A program made the position numbers and the translations under genes. Below, in pieces: positions 3,036-42,934 of a stretch of 64,000 bases of DNA; positions within the stretch are counted from its first letter, which is position 1; the number at the start of each line of letters is the position of its first letter. The notes under the pieces were generated by a model. It searched no databases. It was given only the letters and a program-made list of their open reading frames with translations, and was not told the DNA's origin. This stretch comes from an uncultured Clostridia bacterium (GTDB lineage Bacteria > Bacillota > Clostridia > Christensenellales > UBA1242), in assembly GCA_947366545.1 (NCBI GenBank), contig CANBAL010000002.1:14889-78888 (forward strand), in the 5' to 3' direction.

Positions 3036-3659
3036 GTGAAAGCGCAAGAAATAAAAAAACATCTTGATAGATTATTTCCCTTTGCAGAGTGTGAATTACA
3101 TTATAACAGTCCTTATCAGCTTCTTGTTGCGACAATCTTGTCAGCGCAATGCACAGATAAAAGGGTGAACGCAGTCACGAGTGAACTTTTTAAGCGTGCA
3201 AGCACGCCTTATGAAATGGTTAAACTTAGTCAGGAAGAATTAGAAAACATTATTCACTCTTGTGGCTTTTATCATAATAAGGCAACGAATATCTTAAAGA
3301 TGAGTAAGGAGCTTGTTGAAAAATACAATGGACAAGTACCGGGGTCGCTAGAAGAGATGCAGACCTTAGCTGGGGTCGGCAGAAAGACGGCGAATGTTGT
3401 TTATAGCGAGGGGTTTAAAGGTGACGCTTTTGCGGTAGACACCCATGTACTACGGGTGTCAAATAGACTAGGGCTAGCCGATACTCAGGATCCAACAAAA
3501 TGTGAACTTGCACTTACCAAATTCTTTCCAAAGAAGGACTGGAGCGAACTTCATCTTCAAATGGTGCATTTTGGTAGATATAAGTGTAAGTCGCAAAAGC
3601 CAGACTGCAAAGAATGTCCGTTTGAGAGAATATGTAAATTTAATAAGGAGGAGAAGTAA
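3036..3659 (+). CDS. nth: endonuclease III
   Basis: HhH-GPD motif LAGVGRKTANVV and C-terminal 4Fe-4S loop CKSQKPDCKECPFERIC. GTG start. Confidence 0.93.
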   Translation: MKAQEIKKHLDRLFPFAECELHYNSPYQLLVATILSAQCTDKRVNAVTSELFKRASTPYEMVKLSQEELENIIHSCGFYHNKATNILKMSKELVEKYNGQVPGSLEEMQTLAGVGRKTANVVYSEGFKGDAFAVDTHVLRVSNRLGLADTQDPTKCELALTKFFPKKDWSELHLQMVHFGRYKCKSQKPDCKECPFERICKFNKEEK

Positions 3660-16583: not shown

Positions 16584-16617
16584 ATAAAAAACAAGTCACT
16601 TTTGTGACTTGCTTTTA
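16584..16617 (-). terminator. intrinsic terminator of the 141-aa gene
   Basis: CAAGTCAC-tttt-GTGACTTG hairpin with a T-run on the minus strand. Confidence 0.7.
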
Positions 16618-17043
16618 TTACATTTCATCGTCTTCTTTGATCTTGATTAATGCCGCGCCTTCTGCCATTGCGCAAATTCCAACGAGTGGCATACATAAAC
16701 CTATGTTTAAACCCTGTGCTGTTTTATACTCCTTACCTAAACTTGACTTTTTTAAATTTTCAACTACAAATTCTTGTGAGTTAAGTTTATCTTGTAATTG
16801 TGCATATTCCTTTGACAATGCAATTGTTTCCTGTGCATCTTTGCTTTCTGACATGGCTTGTTCAAGTTTTTTAAGTTGAGCATTGTGTTTAGCACAAGCG
16901 TCTGCATATTCTTGTGACCTCATGTATTTTATTATCGCTGTCTGCATTTGATCTTTAGTTATTTGGCAGCCTGCGATAGAAGCAGATAAACCAACAAACG
17001 CTGTAATGTATGTACAGATACGAATGACCTTGCGTTTCTTCAT
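16618..17043 (-). CDS. hypothetical lipoprotein/membrane protein with coiled-coil middle, C-terminal TM and acidic ...EDDEM tail
   Basis: 141 aa. Signal peptide with lipobox SIAGC, helical Q/K/E-rich core, TM GLCMPLVGICAMAEGAALI. RBS AAAGGAG. Same architecture as 23092-23595. Confidence 0.65.
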   Translation of the reverse strand: MKKRKVIRICTYITAFVGLSASIAGCQITKDQMQTAIIKYMRSQEYADACAKHNAQLKKLEQAMSESKDAQETIALSKEYAQLQDKLNSQEFVVENLKKSSLGKEYKTAQGLNIGLCMPLVGICAMAEGAALIKIKEDDEM

Positions 17044-17069
17044 TTTCTTTCTCCTTTATTTATGGCTTT

Positions 17070-17099
17070 ATTATACCATAGTGGGGGGGGGATTGTCAA
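17070..17099 (-). promoter_or_regulatory. consensus sigma-A promoter with C9 tract in the spacer (candidate phase-variable)
   Basis: Minus strand: TTGACA (17099-17094), 18-nt spacer ATCCCCCCCCCACTATGG, TATAAT (17075-17070) with TGn extension. C9 run = 17083-17091. Confidence 0.75.
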
Positions 17100-17117
17100 T
17101 ACCCTTTTTTAGTTTTT

Positions 17118-17188
17118 TAGATTTCTCCGTTGCGCCCTTATGGGCTTCGGTCGAAATGACAAAAGGATGGGCGGTCGAAATGACAAAA
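17118..17188 (+). repeat. REP-like intergenic hairpin repeat, copy a
   Basis: TAGATTTCTCCG-[GCCC-ttat-GGGC]-TTCGGTCGAAATGACAAAAG, plus a second GGTCGAAATGACAAAAG. Related copies at 44548-44590 and 47399-47466. Confidence 0.85.
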
Positions 17189-17265
17189 GAGAGAAAGTAC
17201 GGGATGACGAGAGTGGATGGGACAAAGGGTGAAGAAAAGTATTATAAATACTTTGGCTAATTTGT

Positions 17266-17295
17266 TTGACAAAATAAGGGGCGAGGGAGTATCAT
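17266..17295 (+). promoter_or_regulatory. probable promoter of pheST
   Basis: TTGACA (17266-17271), 18-nt spacer, TATCAT (17290-17295). No T-box leader follows. Confidence 0.45.
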
Positions 17296-23062: not shown

Positions 23063-23093
23063 AAAAAGGGGACTGTTTAAGTCCTCTTTTTTT
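23063..23093. terminator. bidirectional intrinsic terminator
   Basis: AGGGGACT-gttta-AGTCCTCT flanked by an A-run and a T-run. Lies between convergent thiI and the 167-aa gene. Confidence 0.7.
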
Positions 23094-23595
23094 ACATTTC
23101 GTCTTCTTCATCAACATGTGTGCCGCTTATTTCTTTCGATTTCTTTTTCCTTTTAAAATAATCTGTAGAATAAAGTTTGTATTCCAAGTAGGCTGCCCCA
23201 AAAGATAATGATAGTGGAGCTATGCCACATAGAGAAATTGCAAGGTCTCTATTTCGGAGCTTTATGTTTTCAGGCTTATCTGCAAACATACATTCGGCTA
23301 TATAACCTCTATCTTCTTTTAGTTTCTCTAGATATTGGATTTGCTTTTCAGTAAGATGAGTAATTTTTTTGTTTAAAATGTTGTTAAGTGAAGCTTCGAG
23401 CAAATCAATTTGATCTTGTATTTCTGCTTTGTGTACTGTAAATTCTTCGCTTGCTTTGTATGCGTCCATAGCATTGTCAAATTCTACCATGCCGTAGCTT
23501 ATCATAAAAATTCCACTACCTAAAAGTAGTACAGGGGTGGCAGCATAAGCAAGGGCGGTGCCGAGTTTTTTTAGTGCGGTATTGTTGTTTTTCAT
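23092..23595 (-). CDS. hypothetical membrane protein (N-TM, coiled-coil, C-TM, acidic ...EEDEM tail)
   Basis: 167 aa. TM LAYAATPVLLLGSGIFMISYG, helical core, TM LCGIAPLSLSFGAAYL. RBS AAGGAG. Architecture and promoter match 16618-17043. Confidence 0.65.
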   Translation of the reverse strand: MKNNNTALKKLGTALAYAATPVLLLGSGIFMISYGMVEFDNAMDAYKASEEFTVHKAEIQDQIDLLEASLNNILNKKITHLTEKQIQYLEKLKEDRGYIAECMFADKPENIKLRNRDLAISLCGIAPLSLSFGAAYLEYKLYSTDYFKRKKKSKEISGTHVDEEDEM

Positions 23596-23616: not shown

Positions 23617-23647
23617 ATTATAACATAGCGGGGGGGGGAGTTGTCAA
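23617..23647 (-). promoter_or_regulatory. consensus sigma-A promoter with C9 tract in the spacer (candidate phase-variable)
   Basis: Minus strand: TTGACA (23647-23642), 19-nt spacer ACTCCCCCCCCCGCTATGT, TATAAT (23622-23617) with TGn extension. C9 run = 23630-23638. Confidence 0.75.
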
Positions 23648-27937: not shown

Positions 27938-28975
27938 TTATTCTCCTCTTAGTTTTACTTTGTCAGCAACACTTTTGCGCATATCTTCATTAATGGCTGC
28001 GTAGTGTTTCTTGGTTGTGTTTACATCCTTATGGCCAAGCACATCAGCGACGATATATATATCTTTGGTTTCGCGATACAGATTAGTGCCATATGTACTG
28101 CGCAGTTTATGTGGAGAAATTTTTTTAAGAGGGGAGGCGATACGTGCAAATTTTTTGACTAAGTTTTCGACAGCTCTTACAGAGATTCGCTTATTTTGAA
28201 GAGAAATAAACATTGCTTTTTCGTCTTTATCAAGTTCGAGAGTGGCGCGTTTTTCTAGCCATGTTTTTAGTGCCATTGCCACTTCATTTGAGAAATATAG
28301 CATAGACTGGTTTCCGCCTTTTCTGGTCACTATAAAGGCGTTTTGGTTAAAGTCAAAACTTTCCACATTAAGGCCAACAAGTTCGCTAATACGGATGCCT
28401 GTGCCAAGGAAAAGGGTGATGATGGCGTTGTCGCGCTCAAAGGTGTTTTTATTGTACGAAATTTGCTTTTGTGAAAAATCGGTAGGGTTTTCGACCGCAT
28501 TCATAAGTGCGGACACCTCATTTTGCTCAAGCTTTATAATTTCTTTATTATGTAGTTTTGGTGTTTCAATTTTACTAGCGATATTTGCGGATAGCATGTC
28601 GTGATTAAATAGATACTTAAACAGGCTTCGTAGAGACGCAAGTTTTCTTGCTTTTCCTCTTTCACTGTTTCTATATGTTTTGCCGTCTTTTTCATAAAGG
28701 GCAATATATGACAGGAATTGCTCTATATGGCGGGATTTTAGGGTGTCTAAGTCGGCAGTAGTGATGTTTTCTGGTGGCTTTTTAAATACAAATTCGCTCA
28801 GGTAATCAAAAAACACAGAAAAATCCATGGCGTAATTGTATCTAGTAAGTGAACTTGTGTTATTTTCCACACCTACAAAGAAGTCATAACAAAATTCTGG
28901 AAGATTATCAAGGTATTTTCCAGTTTTAACTCTGTTTTGCATATCGCGTCTTTCATAGAAAGAAGGTTTTCCCAT
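27938..28975 (-). CDS. tyrosine site-specific recombinase (Xer/phage-integrase family)
   Basis: 345 aa. SAM-like N-domain. Catalytic residues in context: TGIRISE (R), HKLRST (H-x-x-R), VLGHKDVNTTKKHY (H...Y). Confidence 0.9.
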   Translation of the reverse strand: MGKPSFYERRDMQNRVKTGKYLDNLPEFCYDFFVGVENNTSSLTRYNYAMDFSVFFDYLSEFVFKKPPENITTADLDTLKSRHIEQFLSYIALYEKDGKTYRNSERGKARKLASLRSLFKYLFNHDMLSANIASKIETPKLHNKEIIKLEQNEVSALMNAVENPTDFSQKQISYNKNTFERDNAIITLFLGTGIRISELVGLNVESFDFNQNAFIVTRKGGNQSMLYFSNEVAMALKTWLEKRATLELDKDEKAMFISLQNKRISVRAVENLVKKFARIASPLKKISPHKLRSTYGTNLYRETKDIYIVADVLGHKDVNTTKKHYAAINEDMRKSVADKVKLRGE

Positions 28976-32843: not shown

Positions 32844-33341
32844 TTAACCTTCATTTTCACCATCATTATTTTTGCTGTTTGATTGTGTTTTTATTGAGTT
32901 ATAGAAAAATTTAACATCCTCTTCGGTTAACCTCAGTTTGTCAAATTCCTCTATTGGCAGTTGAAGTTCAATTTGAACCAAGCCTTTTACCACTGGCGAC
33001 AATTTTGGCCAAGACTCTATAAGATTAAATATAGGTGTTCCGTCGCAAAGTTTGTCATTTAAAGAGTAGTTTTTATCAAGTATGACTTTTTTAAAGCCAG
33101 AACTCACTTGCGGTTTGTCTACTGTGGAAAGTTCAATGTGAATTGTGTTATCATTTTCGATTGGAAATTCGTTAGGCTTTTTTGCATAACCAGCCAAGAT
33201 AGAAGAGTCGTTGATTATCTTGAAAGCTATTTCTTTTGTTGTTTTAAGAAAGAAATAATTTGAGAGTGAATAGTTGTTCCACCCTATTGTATCGTTTAAC
33301 GTTTCTTTTAACTCTTTCACTGTGATTTCTTTATTTTCCAT
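32844..33341 (-). CDS. hypothetical protein
   Basis: 165 aa. RBS AAGGAG. No recognisable motif. Ends ...NNDGENEG. Confidence 0.55.
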   Translation of the reverse strand: MENKEITVKELKETLNDTIGWNNYSLSNYFFLKTTKEIAFKIINDSSILAGYAKKPNEFPIENDNTIHIELSTVDKPQVSSGFKKVILDKNYSLNDKLCDGTPIFNLIESWPKLSPVVKGLVQIELQLPIEEFDKLRLTEEDVKFFYNSIKTQSNSKNNDGENEG

Positions 33342-33409
33342 GCTTATCTCCTTTAACGCAGATATTATACCATATTATTCACATTTGTCAAGTGCGACAT
33401 CTTTTAGAA

Positions 33410-33465
33410 CACTATTATGCAGTGCATATTAGCACAAGATATGGCAAAATTTTTGCATAATAGTG
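33410..33465. repeat. 12-bp perfect inverted repeat CACTATTATGCA-N32-TGCATAATAGTG enclosing GTGCATATTAGCACAA (site D)
   Basis: Lies just upstream of the -35 of the PadR-like gene. The inner 12-mer GTGCATATTAGC is shared with site A (29044-29055). Confidence 0.8.
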
Positions 33466-33474
33466 CCAATTTAT

Positions 33475-33503
33475 TTGACTGGTGCCATTTTTTTATATAT
33501 AAT
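33475..33503 (+). promoter_or_regulatory. sigma-A promoter of the PadR-like gene
   Basis: TTGACT (33475-33480), 17-nt spacer, TATAAT (33498-33503). Confidence 0.6.
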
Positions 33504-33535
33504 TTATCTATAAATATATATAAACGAGGGAAATT

Positions 33536-35182
33536 ATGGATATTTACGCAAAAGGTCAACTTTCTTTCTTGATTTTAAACTGTCTTTTAGAGAGAGATTT
33601 TTATGGGCTTGATATTATCACTGAGATAAGAGATCGCACCAACGGGAAGATGGATTTAAAGAAGCCGAGCGTTTATTCCAACCTTACAAGAATGGAAAAA
33701 CAAGGACTTGTTTCTTCCTATTTGCAGTCCAGTGATCTTGGCCCTAACAGACGCTATTACAGCATTACTGAAAGAGGAAGAAAGACCCATCAAGAGTTAA
33801 AAGAAGAGTTTGAACGCAATCATTTTGATGTGTTTAGAGATTTTGGCGAGGCTGAGGCTATAATACAGCCTATTGTATCAGAGCAAGTGCAGCCTGCACC
33901 TGCTCCCGTGCAAGCGGAGGTGGAAGAAGATGAAGAAATTGGGGATTTCTTTGATTTCTCTTCGTTTGATAGTCCTAAAGAAATTGTAAAAGAGGAAGAG
34001 AAAGTTGAAGAACCTGTGCAAGAAACGGTAGTAGAAGAACCTGTGCAAGAAGTCATTTTAGAAAAGCCTACTATAGAGCCAGTGCAAGCACCTGCACCAG
34101 AGCCAACGCCTTATGTCTCCCCTCTTAAAGCACAAGCCGAGGAGGTAAAACAAGCAAGTTTTGATGACCCTGATTATAACAAGCGCATATATGACATTAC
34201 CAAGGATTTTAACAAATATCGCAAAAAGAGAAGTTTTGCAGAAGATCAAATGGCAATGGAAGTGAAAGAAAGCGATTTGTCACTTAATGATGCTGAAGCA
34301 AAAAGACAACAAAAGGTGGAAGACTTTAAAACTGCTCTTCTTGAAAGCAAGGGGCGTTTTGGCGAGAGAATGGCTGAGGAAGAATTTAAAAGACCTGCTG
34401 TCACGTCTGCACCTGCAAGACCAATGCCAGTGCCAACTGTTGCCGTGCAAGAGGAAGAAGAAAAGCAGGATGACGGCGTGTTCATAAAAACCCGAGTAGA
34501 GCGGGAAAATGTTATGCGCAGCCGCAAGATTGAGCCTCCAAGACTTAAAATTATCAATGAAAATCCTCCCCTTCCAGCACCTAAGCGTGATGCGAATATT
34601 GACCCTTCTCACAAGGAAATTATTTCACAGTTATATTCAAAGAGCAAAGGCAGCGAGCCTATTCATGAAGAACTTGATATTGGACTTTATGACTATGATG
34701 ACCTTGCCGATTATTACAAATCAAGCAACATCTCCTTTAGAACTTATGAGCAAAGTAAAGCGAAAACAAAGCATAACACAAACAAACTTAATATGATAAC
34801 CTCGGTTTTAACATTTACTTTATTATGTATTTTCTCCAGCATTTTATTCGCGGTGTTATATACTCAACATTTGACTAATCCGAACACGAGTTTCCTCTAC
34901 ATAATTATTCCTGGAGCATATTTTATTGATGTTTGTGCTAGAATTTCCGCACTTAAAAATACGAGTTGGGAGCCAAAGCCAATGCTTCCTCAGTGGTTTA
35001 TGTGGATTATGACATTGCTTTGTGCGGGCGTGGTTGTCGGACTTAACTTCCTATTTGGAATGAATACAGGCAATATTCAGCCTTTCTATACAACACTTAC
35101 ATTGCCTCTTGCTTCAATAATTGCGGTGTTACCTTTCCACTATTATTTGAAACGAGGACTTTACATCAAACATTGGAGATAG
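33536..35182 (+). CDS. membrane-anchored PadR-family transcriptional regulator
   Basis: N-terminal PadR winged helix (LSFLILNCLLERDFYGLDIITEI...KKPSVYSNLTRMEKQGLV), long P/E/V/Q-rich repetitive linker, about 4 C-terminal TM helices. Confidence 0.8.
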   Translation: MDIYAKGQLSFLILNCLLERDFYGLDIITEIRDRTNGKMDLKKPSVYSNLTRMEKQGLVSSYLQSSDLGPNRRYYSITERGRKTHQELKEEFERNHFDVFRDFGEAEAIIQPIVSEQVQPAPAPVQAEVEEDEEIGDFFDFSSFDSPKEIVKEEEKVEEPVQETVVEEPVQEVILEKPTIEPVQAPAPEPTPYVSPLKAQAEEVKQASFDDPDYNKRIYDITKDFNKYRKKRSFAEDQMAMEVKESDLSLNDAEAKRQQKVEDFKTALLESKGRFGERMAEEEFKRPAVTSAPARPMPVPTVAVQEEEEKQDDGVFIKTRVERENVMRSRKIEPPRLKIINENPPLPAPKRDANIDPSHKEIISQLYSKSKGSEPIHEELDIGLYDYDDLADYYKSSNISFRTYEQSKAKTKHNTNKLNMITSVLTFTLLCIFSSILFAVLYTQHLTNPNTSFLYIIIPGAYFIDVCARISALKNTSWEPKPMLPQWFMWIMTLLCAGVVVGLNFLFGMNTGNIQPFYTTLTLPLASIIAVLPFHYYLKRGLYIKHWR

Positions 35183-35283
35183 CATTACTTTTCTAGATTA
35201 GAAAAGTAACAAAAGACTTGAGGGGTTGCGATTCCCCTCAAACTCCCACAAACGCTTTCTAAGCAGAAGATAAAAAAGAATCA

Positions 35284-35907
35284 TTATATGGATTCTTTTT
35301 TATTATTTGATTTTTTGTGTTTGATGTTTTTAATAAGACTTGCAATTAAATCTATACTGAGGAAGATTATTACTATAGCAACTGAGAACATTAGAATATA
35401 CCCTATTGAATTTTCTAGCACTGTGCATAGCAGCGTAACTATTGCGCAGGAAATGAAAGCACCACAAGAAATTGCTAAAAAAGATTTGCCTGTTTTAAGA
35501 CTCGATAGTCCCGCAATGAAACTGCCCGCCCATACCCCAGTAAGAGGAAGAGGTAAGGCGACAAAGGTGCAGAGGCTAAGATACTTTTTAAAATCACCCT
35601 TTTGTTTTTCTAGCAGCGTGGATTTTACGCTATAGCGCGATTTAATTACATTCGTAATAAAACCCGTTGTATGTGCTTTGATTTTTCTTCCAGCGTATAT
35701 CATAAGAATGCTTGGGATTAGACTGCCGATAAAAGCAAAAAGGAATGCTTGCCATGCTGGAAGAGCGCTCTCTGCCCAAAAGCCAGTGTTCATTGCAAAA
35801 GGAATAGCAATCTTGCTTTCAAGTGTTGGAATCATGGCGAGCAATATTACGGCAAGCCAGATACAAGAAGCAAAATGCTGCGAGAGTATTTCGATTAGAT
35901 TTTCCAT
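35284..35907 (-). CDS. putative small multidrug export-family membrane protein (COG2426-like)
   Basis: IPTLESKIAIPFAM and ALPLPLTGVWAGSFIAG resemble the Sm_multidrug_ex signature. Multiple TM helices. Confidence 0.65.
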   Translation of the reverse strand: MENLIEILSQHFASCIWLAVILLAMIPTLESKIAIPFAMNTGFWAESALPAWQAFLFAFIGSLIPSILMIYAGRKIKAHTTGFITNVIKSRYSVKSTLLEKQKGDFKKYLSLCTFVALPLPLTGVWAGSFIAGLSSLKTGKSFLAISCGAFISCAIVTLLCTVLENSIGYILMFSVAIVIIFLSIDLIASLIKNIKHKKSNNKKESI

Positions 35908-35965
35908 ATTTCTATTTTATTCGTGGTTACTTATGAATATGAAAAAAAGTGGCTAGGCCACTTTT

Positions 35966-36571
35966 TTATTTTTTTCTAGGATTTTGAATTACATTAACAT
36001 GAAATTTTGGTACGCACTGCTTAGTATCTACATATTGTAGTAATTCTTCAAACTTTGTATACCCTGTTACTCGATTAAAATGTCCTGCTGTTTTAGATAT
36101 AATAGTTTTTGCATCTATTAATTTTGCAAATTCTATAAGTTTATCATATTTAACATAAGGGTCATTTTCGGATAAATAACAGACCCGTTCTTTGCACAAA
36201 TCTTTAAACTTTTCTGCTTGATTTGTGTACATGGTGCAGTTGACATTGTCGTAATCTTCGTCAAGTCCGAGCATTTGGTTAAAACCCGAGATCATTATTG
36301 CTTTCCCTATTTTTATATTATTTCTAATACAATATTTGACTAAGAAAATACAAGCGATTGAGTGACAGAAAAATACACTTTCTTCATTAATAAATCTTTT
36401 CACAGAGTTAAGCACCATTTCCCAATTTTGATAGGTTTGTCGGTTTTCTCCCACTGGGAAGTCTAAATTATAGCAACTCCCCCCCCCGCATTTAATTTGA
36501 TTTTCAAGCCATGGAAACCAATGGTCTTGACTGGAACCAAAGCTACCATGAATAATAAAATAATTTTTCAT
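35966..36571 (-). CDS. alpha/beta serine hydrolase (YdeN/RBBP9-like)
   Basis: FIIHGSFGSSQDHWFPWL, nucleophile elbow CHSIAC, C-terminal GHFN. Contains an in-frame G9 tract (codons 29-31). Confidence 0.72.
   Translation of the reverse strand: MKNYFIIHGSFGSSQDHWFPWLENQIKCGGGSCYNLDFPVGENRQTYQNWEMVLNSVKRFINEESVFFCHSIACIFLVKYCIRNNIKIGKAIMISGFNQMLGLDEDYDNVNCTMYTNQAEKFKDLCKERVCYLSENDPYVKYDKLIEFAKLIDAKTIISKTAGHFNRVTGYTKFEELLQYVDTKQCVPKFHVNVIQNPRKK
36479..36487 (-). repeat. G9 homopolymer (sense strand) inside the hydrolase CDS
   Basis: tgc ggg ggg ggg agt encodes C-GGG-S. The flanks CAACT-C9-GC on the plus strand are identical to the promoter tract at 23630-23638. Confidence 0.95.
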
Positions 36572-41773: not shown

Positions 41774-42352
41774 TTAACTATTTTCTTGATTTAATTTAGG
41801 GTATGTAAACTTGCAGGTTTTTGAATAGATTTTATATGGGGCTTTTGCCCGATAAATTACCCGCTCTTCTTTTGGTATTTGAATTAATTTCTTTGCTCTA
41901 TCCATATGGAAAATTCCTTCCAAATGGTCGAGTTCGTGTGAAAGTACAGTGCATACAAATCCCTCAAAATTAGTTATAAAATCCCCCCCCCGCATATCTT
42001 GATATTTAATCCTCATGGCATAAGGGCGTTCTACAAGTCCAAAATTTAACATCCCGCTAAAACATGCTTCCCAGAATTCAGTTTTTCCGCATTGTGAAAT
42101 TATCTCAGGATTTATAAGTACTAGCCAATCTTTTTCTGGGTTTGGAGAACAATCGCTTGATGTGGATTTTATTACAACAATTCGTTTTGGAATGCCAAGT
42201 TGTATAGATGCCATTGCAAAACAACCATTATGTGTGCGACAATACTCTTTTACAATTTCTACATCTTGTTCAAGATTTTTATCTGGGAAATTCACCTTTG
42301 CTGACTTCTGCCGTAAGAATGCCTCATTTTCTGCGATTGTAATTGCTTCCAT
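41774..42352 (-). CDS. def: peptide deformylase (divergent paralog-like)
   Basis: IQLGIPKR, EACFS (EGCLS-like), HELDHLEG metal site. Contains an in-frame G9 tract. Confidence 0.82.
   Translation of the reverse strand: MEAITIAENEAFLRQKSAKVNFPDKNLEQDVEIVKEYCRTHNGCFAMASIQLGIPKRIVVIKSTSSDCSPNPEKDWLVLINPEIISQCGKTEFWEACFSGMLNFGLVERPYAMRIKYQDMRGGDFITNFEGFVCTVLSHELDHLEGIFHMDRAKKLIQIPKEERVIYRAKAPYKIYSKTCKFTYPKLNQENS
41983..41991 (-). repeat. G9 homopolymer (sense strand) inside def
   Basis: atg cgg ggg ggg gat encodes M-R-G-G-D, upstream of the HELDH motif. Confidence 0.95.
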
Positions 42353-42367: not shown

Positions 42368-42934
42368 TTATTTGGTTAATGCTTTAAAATCAAATGTGAT
42401 TGGTTTTCCATTGGGTATTTCAAATGATAGATAATTGCCATCATTGGGAATGCCTTTAAAGTAACTCATTAAAATACAACCTACTCCACCATGAGATACA
42501 ATTAGTATATCATCATTTGGATGTTGTTTTAATTCATCAAGGAAGTTAAAAACTCTCTTTTCAACCTCCTTTATACTTTCAGCAAGTTTAAATTTTTGTT
42601 TAGAATTTATATTCCAAAACCCTAGAAAATCGAATTCACTTCGTGTCAAACCTTCAAATTCACCAAAATCTCTTTCTATAATTCTTTCATCAATTATTAT
42701 AGGGTTATTTCCTTTATAAATTATGTCGCAAGTCTGTCTTGCCCGCAATAAAGGGCTGCAAAAAACTTTTTTAAACTTTTTTCCTTTAATAGATTCTGCG
42801 GTTTGTTTTGCTTGCTCTATTCCTGTATTGTTTAATGGAAGGTCAACTCTTCCTTGACATTTAGGGTCTTTAATCCCCCCCCCGTTTCTATGTTCATTCC
42901 AGTCGGTTGAGCCATGTCTTACAAAATAGATCAT
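42368..42934 (-). CDS. histidine phosphatase family protein (phosphoglycerate mutase-like)
   Basis: [17 protein letters not shown] motif, VSHGG. Contains an in-frame G9 tract at codons 18-20. Confidence 0.87.
42875..42883 (-). repeat. G9 homopolymer (sense strand) inside the histidine phosphatase CDS
   Basis: aac ggg ggg ggg att encodes N-GGG-I, within an apparent insertion between the WN and QG family motifs. Confidence 0.95.

Follow-up and report, generated by a model that had tools for sequence, protein, structure and literature searches.

In the window, by which we mean the whole 64,000-nucleotide stretch of Clostridia DNA analyzed here, a run of nine cytosines lies between the -35 and -10 hexamers of a consensus promoter on the minus strand (locus 1), and of the readings that we considered, the one that explains this run best, and toward which we lean, is a slippage-prone expression switch. 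The run would then be a hypermutable tract that selection maintains within the spacer of a strong promoter of the sigma-A type. Replication slippage would add or remove one C, the spacer would shift between 17 nt with C8 (the optimal length), 18 nt with C9 (as assembled) and 19 nt and beyond, and transcription would switch, in a heritable and reversible way, among a high, an intermediate, and a low or off level. Locus 1 would be one of a lineage-wide set of G/C runs of 9-10 bases acting like the contingency loci of Campylobacter, some of them in the promoters of surface or membrane proteins and others in frame within genes for small accessory enzymes. Both the length switching at the locus-1 promoter and its effect on expression are what we infer from the sequence.

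The original prediction had read this promoter as TTGACA, an 18-nt spacer containing the C9, TGgTATAAT, an AAAGGAG ribosome-binding site and an ATG at 17043, and each of these coordinates is correct (Table 1). The spacer is composed of at-CCCCCCCCC-actatgg, and its 3' end, tATGg, corresponds to a -16 TRTG or TGn extended -10 element. A consensus scan gave the promoter a score of 12/12 plus the TG, from which strong activity is predicted, and the start codon lies 27 nt downstream of the -10 hexamer. The arrangement of a homopolymer between the -35 and -10 boxes, followed by a ribosome-binding site and an ATG, is that of the opc/porA type, and the nine cytosines fall within the range of tract lengths (7-8 or more G:C) at which high-frequency slippage is expected. 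The TG-extended -10 may make the promoter tolerant of changes in spacer length, so that their effect would be blunted. Upstream of the promoter lies a 17-bp palindrome that is a possible operator, together with two exact direct repeats that sit in a stretch of about 66 bp. This stretch is lacking from the homologous cassette of a related locus, L077. The other end of the cassette is formed by a hairpin that is followed on the minus strand by TTTTTT and is conserved in the L077 homologue.

Table 1. Features of the two run-bearing promoter loci and of the intragenic runs in the window
Feature	Position	Strand	Remarks
-35 hexamer, TTGACA	17094-17099	-	Sequence and consensus scan
C9 homopolymer (G9 on the + strand)	17083-17091	-	Spacer positions 3-11
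Promoter spacer, 18 nt, at-C9-actatgg	17076-17093	-	atCCCCCCCCCactatgg
-10 hexamer, TATAAT	17070-17075	-	TGg directly before
Ribosome-binding site, AAAGGAG	17051-17057	-	ATG 7 nt further on
141-aa ORF, small membrane-anchored protein	16618-17043	-	Opens at ATG 17043
Palindromic hairpin, terminator	16592-16611	-	Called on the + strand by the scan, tail CTTTTATT
17-bp palindrome	17237-17253	-	AAGTATTtatAATACTT; 5' of the promoter and conserved in L077
Two exact 18-nt direct repeats	17148-17189	-	CTTTTGTCATTTCGACCG; 24 nt apart
Paralogous promoter, locus 2	23617-23647	-	TTGACA act C9 gctatgt TATAAT; 19-nt spacer
Locus-2 C9	23630-23638	-	
167-aa ORF driven by locus 2	23092-23595	-	
G9 in Ser_hydrolase gene 35966-36571	36479-36487	-	YdeN-type; KCGGGS; coding strand, in frame
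G9 in peptide deformylase paralogue 41774-42352	41983-41991	-	MRGGD; coding strand, in frame
G9 in His_Phos_1 gene 42368-42934	42875-42883	-	Histidine phosphatase; NGGGI; coding strand, in frame

The loci used for comparison were syntenic loci from other samples and assemblers, identified through the cluster members of PheS and of a NUDIX protein. The lineage is sparsely represented: the nearest PheS outside the 90% cluster of the window's own protein is 73% identical, the matches that carry a name are 'Clostridia bacterium' metagenome-assembled genomes (MAGs), and nine of the ten window proteins that were checked have few or no companions in their 90% clusters. An exact-protein look-up of the 141-aa protein was without a match, as was that of the window PheS, and a word-indexed homology search with the 141-aa protein returned only the protein itself. 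HMMER run with it over 1.8 billion representative proteins added only the 150-aa homologue encoded at L077, which shares 36% protein identity and ends in the tail EEDDEM. Judged by these searches, the 141-aa protein is a member of a tiny, private and fast-evolving family. No significant family match was found in Pfam, NCBIfam or PHROGs. An AlphaFold prediction from the single sequence gave a helical bundle (pLDDT 69) without a significant match in the PDB. The protein begins with a KKRK signal peptide and the lipobox IAGC, continues with a helical coiled-coil core, and closes with a C-terminal hydrophobic segment and the acidic tail KEDDEM. The lipobox, in the context MKKRKVIRICTYITAFVGLSASIAGC, fits the pattern [LVI][ASTVI][GAS]C. 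Since the L077 homologue has an N-terminal hydrophobic segment without a lipobox, the conserved trait is membrane anchoring, not lipidation.

The promoter, 5' untranslated region and terminator of the cassette are, by eye, about 90% identical between the window and L077. The L077 promoter contains an uninterrupted C9, and its spacer is 19 nt compared with 18 in the window, the difference being an extra A beside the run. The cassette (16586-17274 in the window, 8296-8940 in L077) lies in opposite orientations in the two with respect to its neighbors, the pseudouridine synthase gene and pheS. We considered and set aside an invertible element, as there were no convincing flanking inverted repeats and a promoter that is inverted together with its gene would not switch; we therefore treated the inversion as an evolutionary rearrangement. 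The cassette is absent from two other comparison loci, L079 and L080. With regard to a T-box or other RNA element in the intergenic region next to pheS, Rfam gave only a tRNA in the window.

Locus 2 is a paralogous promoter with the same C9 (context GGGTATTGACAactC9gCTATGtTATAATAAA), and the 167-aa protein that it drives has the architecture of the 141-aa protein, with an N-terminal transmembrane segment, a coiled coil, a C-terminal transmembrane segment and the tail EEDEM. In four related loci the locus-2 gene has been lost by a deletion between GAAGAA microhomologies that left ATG-TGA behind, and the orphaned promoter there reads TTGACT-ttgCCCCgctctgt-TATAAT, with the run decayed to C4. The decay of the run after loss of the gene implies that the run persists only ahead of a gene that it can control, and its conservation across diverged homologues together with its loss along with the gene argues that it is maintained in connection with the downstream gene.

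Runs of this kind are far more frequent than base composition would allow. At 37% G+C, a first-order model predicts about 0.055 C/G runs of at least nine bases in the window, and we found five, each of exactly nine; for runs of 6-8 bases the same model predicts about 6.5 in the 64 kb, and none was present. The C9 is thus not a product of chance, which bears out the original prediction that such a run was very unlikely to arise by chance. Across about 234 kb from the clade (sequences not deduplicated), the numbers of G/C runs by length were 414 of 4 bases, 81 of 5, 4 of 6, 0 of 7, 1 of 8, 18 of 9 and 3 of 10, a bimodal distribution with a sharp peak at 9 and nothing at 7. An excess of long G/C runs with a narrow mode near nine is what is expected of contingency loci. 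More distant relatives (L083, L084 and L212-L229) had no such runs of 9-10 bases.

Three of the five window runs lie within intact genes, so the run is not a feature specific to promoters, a point that the original prediction had missed. The G9 is read as three GGG glycine codons in both the hydrolase and the phosphatase genes, and as two GGG codons plus a CGG arginine codon in the deformylase paralogue; GGG makes up only 15% of the glycine codons in the window. These three genes are candidates for translational phase variation. In all six intragenic loci the coding strand carries the G, and in the promoters the sense strand carries the C, so that orientation with respect to transcription differs between the two classes. 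When all runs are read as C, the 5' neighbor is T at 8/8 independent loci (about 4e-4 by chance) and the 3' neighbor is G or A, never T. These invariant flanks suggest either a mutational signature or a longer motif that is recognized. A replication-strand polarity of the Chi or KOPS type was also considered, in that the presumed leading strand carries the G in each of the five window runs. It was rejected, since the L077 promoter runs have the opposite polarity, which indicates that orientation follows the gene and not replication. Cumulative GC skew peaks at about 33000-36000 of the window, and gene orientation converges there, from mostly plus to mostly minus; together these suggest that the replication terminus lies inside the window. 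A Phage_integrase (Xer-like) gene is located at 27938-28975.

In the clade, the genes driven by run-bearing promoters all encode membrane proteins or lipoproteins. Beside pheS, several relatives carry a gene for a 232-aa lipoprotein that the window does not have, with a promoter of the form TTGACA-N3-4-C9-gtgc-TATTTT. The run there is C9 in L077, L080, L205 and L206 and C10 in L079, and the spacers measure 17 nt in L077, L080 and L079 and 16 nt in L205 and L206. These spacers differ in the flanking bases (acct, agt, act), and the C10 of L079 is offset by a flanking change. In a more distant species (L220-L229) a 240-aa homologue of this lipoprotein has an A8 and no C run about 60 nt upstream, within a promoter that reads TTGCTT-A8gaaaagtgt-TATAAT or TATAGT with a 17-nt spacer and whose -10 is polymorphic between samples. 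When each distinct variant of a run-bearing promoter is counted once, the spacers measure 16, 17, 18, 19 and 19 nt. As a control for spacer length, we scanned metagenomes with a generic cassette pattern, the matches listed being ordinary promoters: among 109 promoters of the same form in those matches, 66% had a 17-nt spacer and fewer than 5% a spacer of at least 19 nt, and a C run longer than 4 was absent among the matches listed.

The intragenic runs could likewise be followed in relatives. Of eight loci with the Ser_hydrolase run, six (the window and five related loci) have G9 and two have G10; the run is in frame in each, with flanking codons that differ among them. The His_Phos_1 orthologue in L081 has NSKG at the corresponding position and no run. 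A gene for a cupin-like protein of 113 aa contains an in-frame G9 in L081 (5108-5116). In L207 the same gene has a frameshift exactly at its G9 (3231-3239), so that the called gene is 80 aa as against 113, and the conserved C-terminal half lies in the +2 frame, where a G10 would be needed to restore it. The L207 gene looks like a natural OFF allele. Coding-strand runs with both ON and OFF alleles, as expected of contingency loci, thus occur in this clade, the OFF allele having been seen once only. At the same site in L208 (2850-3240), an ardA-carrying mobile element, which may be a conjugative transposon, has its junction at a G8, and this G8/G9 site may be an insertion target or breakpoint.

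We also scanned GTDB genomes with the pattern TTGACAN{1,3}CCCCCN{0,10}TATGKTATAAT, which returned 76 loci, none of them from the source organism. In MAGs of other Clostridia, C8-C13 runs were found in TTGACA...TATAAT spacers ahead of lipoproteins and of peptides with double-glycine leaders; the spacers were mostly over-long, a result that is partly forced by the search pattern. A MAG from a Hadza sample (CAKSIH01; L005, L062, L070 and L073), along with L028 and L072, had C9-C13 in spacers of 19-21 nt. The three CAKSIH01 promoters that could be read precede double-glycine-leader peptides (LENVSGG or LEHASGG) that look bacteriocin-like, and the C-run promoter of L072 precedes a lipoprotein.

A C9 placed between perfect boxes, where each slip changes the spacer by one base, makes some heritable variation in expression mechanistically expected. 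The slipped-strand switch of the original prediction gains from the conservation of the run, from its decay when the gene is lost and from the frameshift at a sister run. The comparison of tract length among related strains that had been put forward as a check yielded no example of it, which weighs somewhat against the switch: both locus-1 cassettes are C9, and at no promoter was there a pure change in run length, the spacer differences lying beside the run. A tract that switched freely should vary more than this, unless what assemblies record is a strongly favored mode; insertion and deletion biases of the C. jejuni type, which would hold length near nine, can reconcile hypermutability with constancy in assemblies. 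The T that precedes the run at every independent locus is also not explained by slippage alone. The placement of spacer differences and the constant flanks (T on the 5' side, G or A on the 3' side) would fit a static, sequence-specific T-C9-R element with no length switch, either an operator for a poly(C)- or poly(G)-binding regulator or a structural block within the spacer. Such an element would also account for a run length of nine in 18 of the 22 sightings, promoters without any frame constraint included, and decay of the run upon gene loss fits a functional element of any kind. We nevertheless regard a static element as rather unlikely, given that the same run occurs in the coding regions of unrelated genes (as Gly-Gly-Gly, in the G sense) whereas promoters have the C sense, that one intragenic run carries a frameshift, that lengths of 8 and 10 are also seen, and that slippage is elevated in a G:C run of nine bases regardless of any other role (PMC3401435). 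It is highly doubtful that T-C9-R is instead actively kept at nine, in promoters and genes alike, by a dedicated factor or by targeted run-length homeostasis or mutagenesis in place of passive slippage; that proposal would explain why length hardly varies even in the absence of a frame constraint, why the 5' neighbor is always T, and why spacer changes fall beside the run.

The runs could also be a neutral by-product of a mutational bias specific to the lineage, in which insertion-biased slippage, once a run has passed about six bases, drives it to an equilibrium near nine with no adaptive switching. The bimodal lengths, with their gap at 7 and sharp peak at 9, agree with such a process and correspond to the equilibrium that would follow from the biases toward insertion and deletion measured for C. 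jejuni. Runs in genes whose products are not at the surface (the deformylase paralogue, the phosphatase and the hydrolase) fit it as well. Yet substitutions would be expected over the divergence in question, and the C9 is intact between cassettes whose proteins have diverged to 36% identity; the Ser_hydrolase run has been kept in eight loci, in every case by the less-used GGG codon; the run decays once the gene is lost; and selection would be expected to remove runs prone to frameshifting from intact genes unless they conferred a benefit. We consider a neutral origin unlikely on these grounds. It is extremely improbable that the run or its exact length is an artefact of assembly, polishing or sequencing. 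Homopolymers are error-prone and the five window runs of exactly nine resemble a cap at first sight, but three of them keep long ORFs in frame, the occurrence of lengths 8 and 10 means that there is no cap, and the same runs recur at homologous sites across samples and assemblers (SPAdes NODE, k119/k141 MEGAHIT-style, Logan and JGI). The finding of 9-10 base runs at homologous sites in independent assemblies makes an artefact unlikely.

If the switch reading is true, an uncultured gut-type lineage of Clostridia uses dense, Campylobacter-like polyG/C contingency loci, among them spacer switches in the promoters of small membrane proteins that form a private family. Such a system would also mark out the surface proteins on which phage, host immunity or competitors exert fluctuating selection. 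For the annotation of MAGs, frameshifts at such runs, as in L207, would likely be phase states and not pseudogenes or assembly errors. We found no earlier report in the literature of a homopolymer switch in this lineage, and the papers on phase variation in gut commensals and Clostridia that we found concern invertible DNA and methylation; homopolymer switching in Clostridia would provide a second source of heterogeneity beside these.

The closest counterpart to locus 1 is found at opc and porA of Neisseria meningitidis, where a poly-C or poly-G tract lies between the -35 and -10 elements and tract length sets the spacer and, with it, expression. Locus 1 shares with them a G:C homopolymer between the two boxes of a gene for a surface or membrane protein, and differs in its host, a member of the Gram-positive-type Clostridia, in its perfect hexamers and TG-extended -10, and in having C9 in both homologous copies. 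In fim2/fim3 of Bordetella pertussis a C-stretch spaces the site of the activator BvgA from the -10, and the vlp genes of Mycoplasma hyorhinis have a poly-A promoter tract. These systems are alike with ours in having a homopolymer in the promoter region, variable surface (lipo)proteins and small paralogous families, whereas the C tract here stands between sigma-A boxes of consensus sequence, with no activator implied.

For the set of runs as a whole, the nearest likeness is with C. jejuni, in which polyG/C tracts have a modal length of nine, 80% have polyG on the coding strand, insertions are favored at G8/G9 and deletions at G10/G11, and tracts of G8-G11 switch at high rates (PMC3401435). The clade shares with C. 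jejuni an excess of G/C runs that peaks at nine bases, intragenic runs whose G lies on the coding strand, frameshifts at runs, and weak conservation between genomes of the run at a given locus. It belongs to another phylum, a substantial share of its runs lie in promoter spacers, and density is higher in the window, at 5 per 64 kb compared with the 29 polyG/C loci reported for the NCTC11168 genome (PMC4965091). Single-nucleotide indels in intergenic homopolymers are reported to alter transcript levels of adjacent surface-protein genes in Gram-positive bacteria, at Spy1336/R28-Spy1337 of S. pyogenes and at poly-C/G tracts of Cutibacterium acnes (PMC7098570, PMC4746626, PMC3224659); as described in these reports, those tracts, unlike locus 1, do not lie between perfect boxes and do not form a dense system of uniform nine-base runs. 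The homopolymer in a promoter spacer is therefore an established mechanism, and what the present case adds, modestly, is its lineage together with runs that are so dense and so uniform in length.
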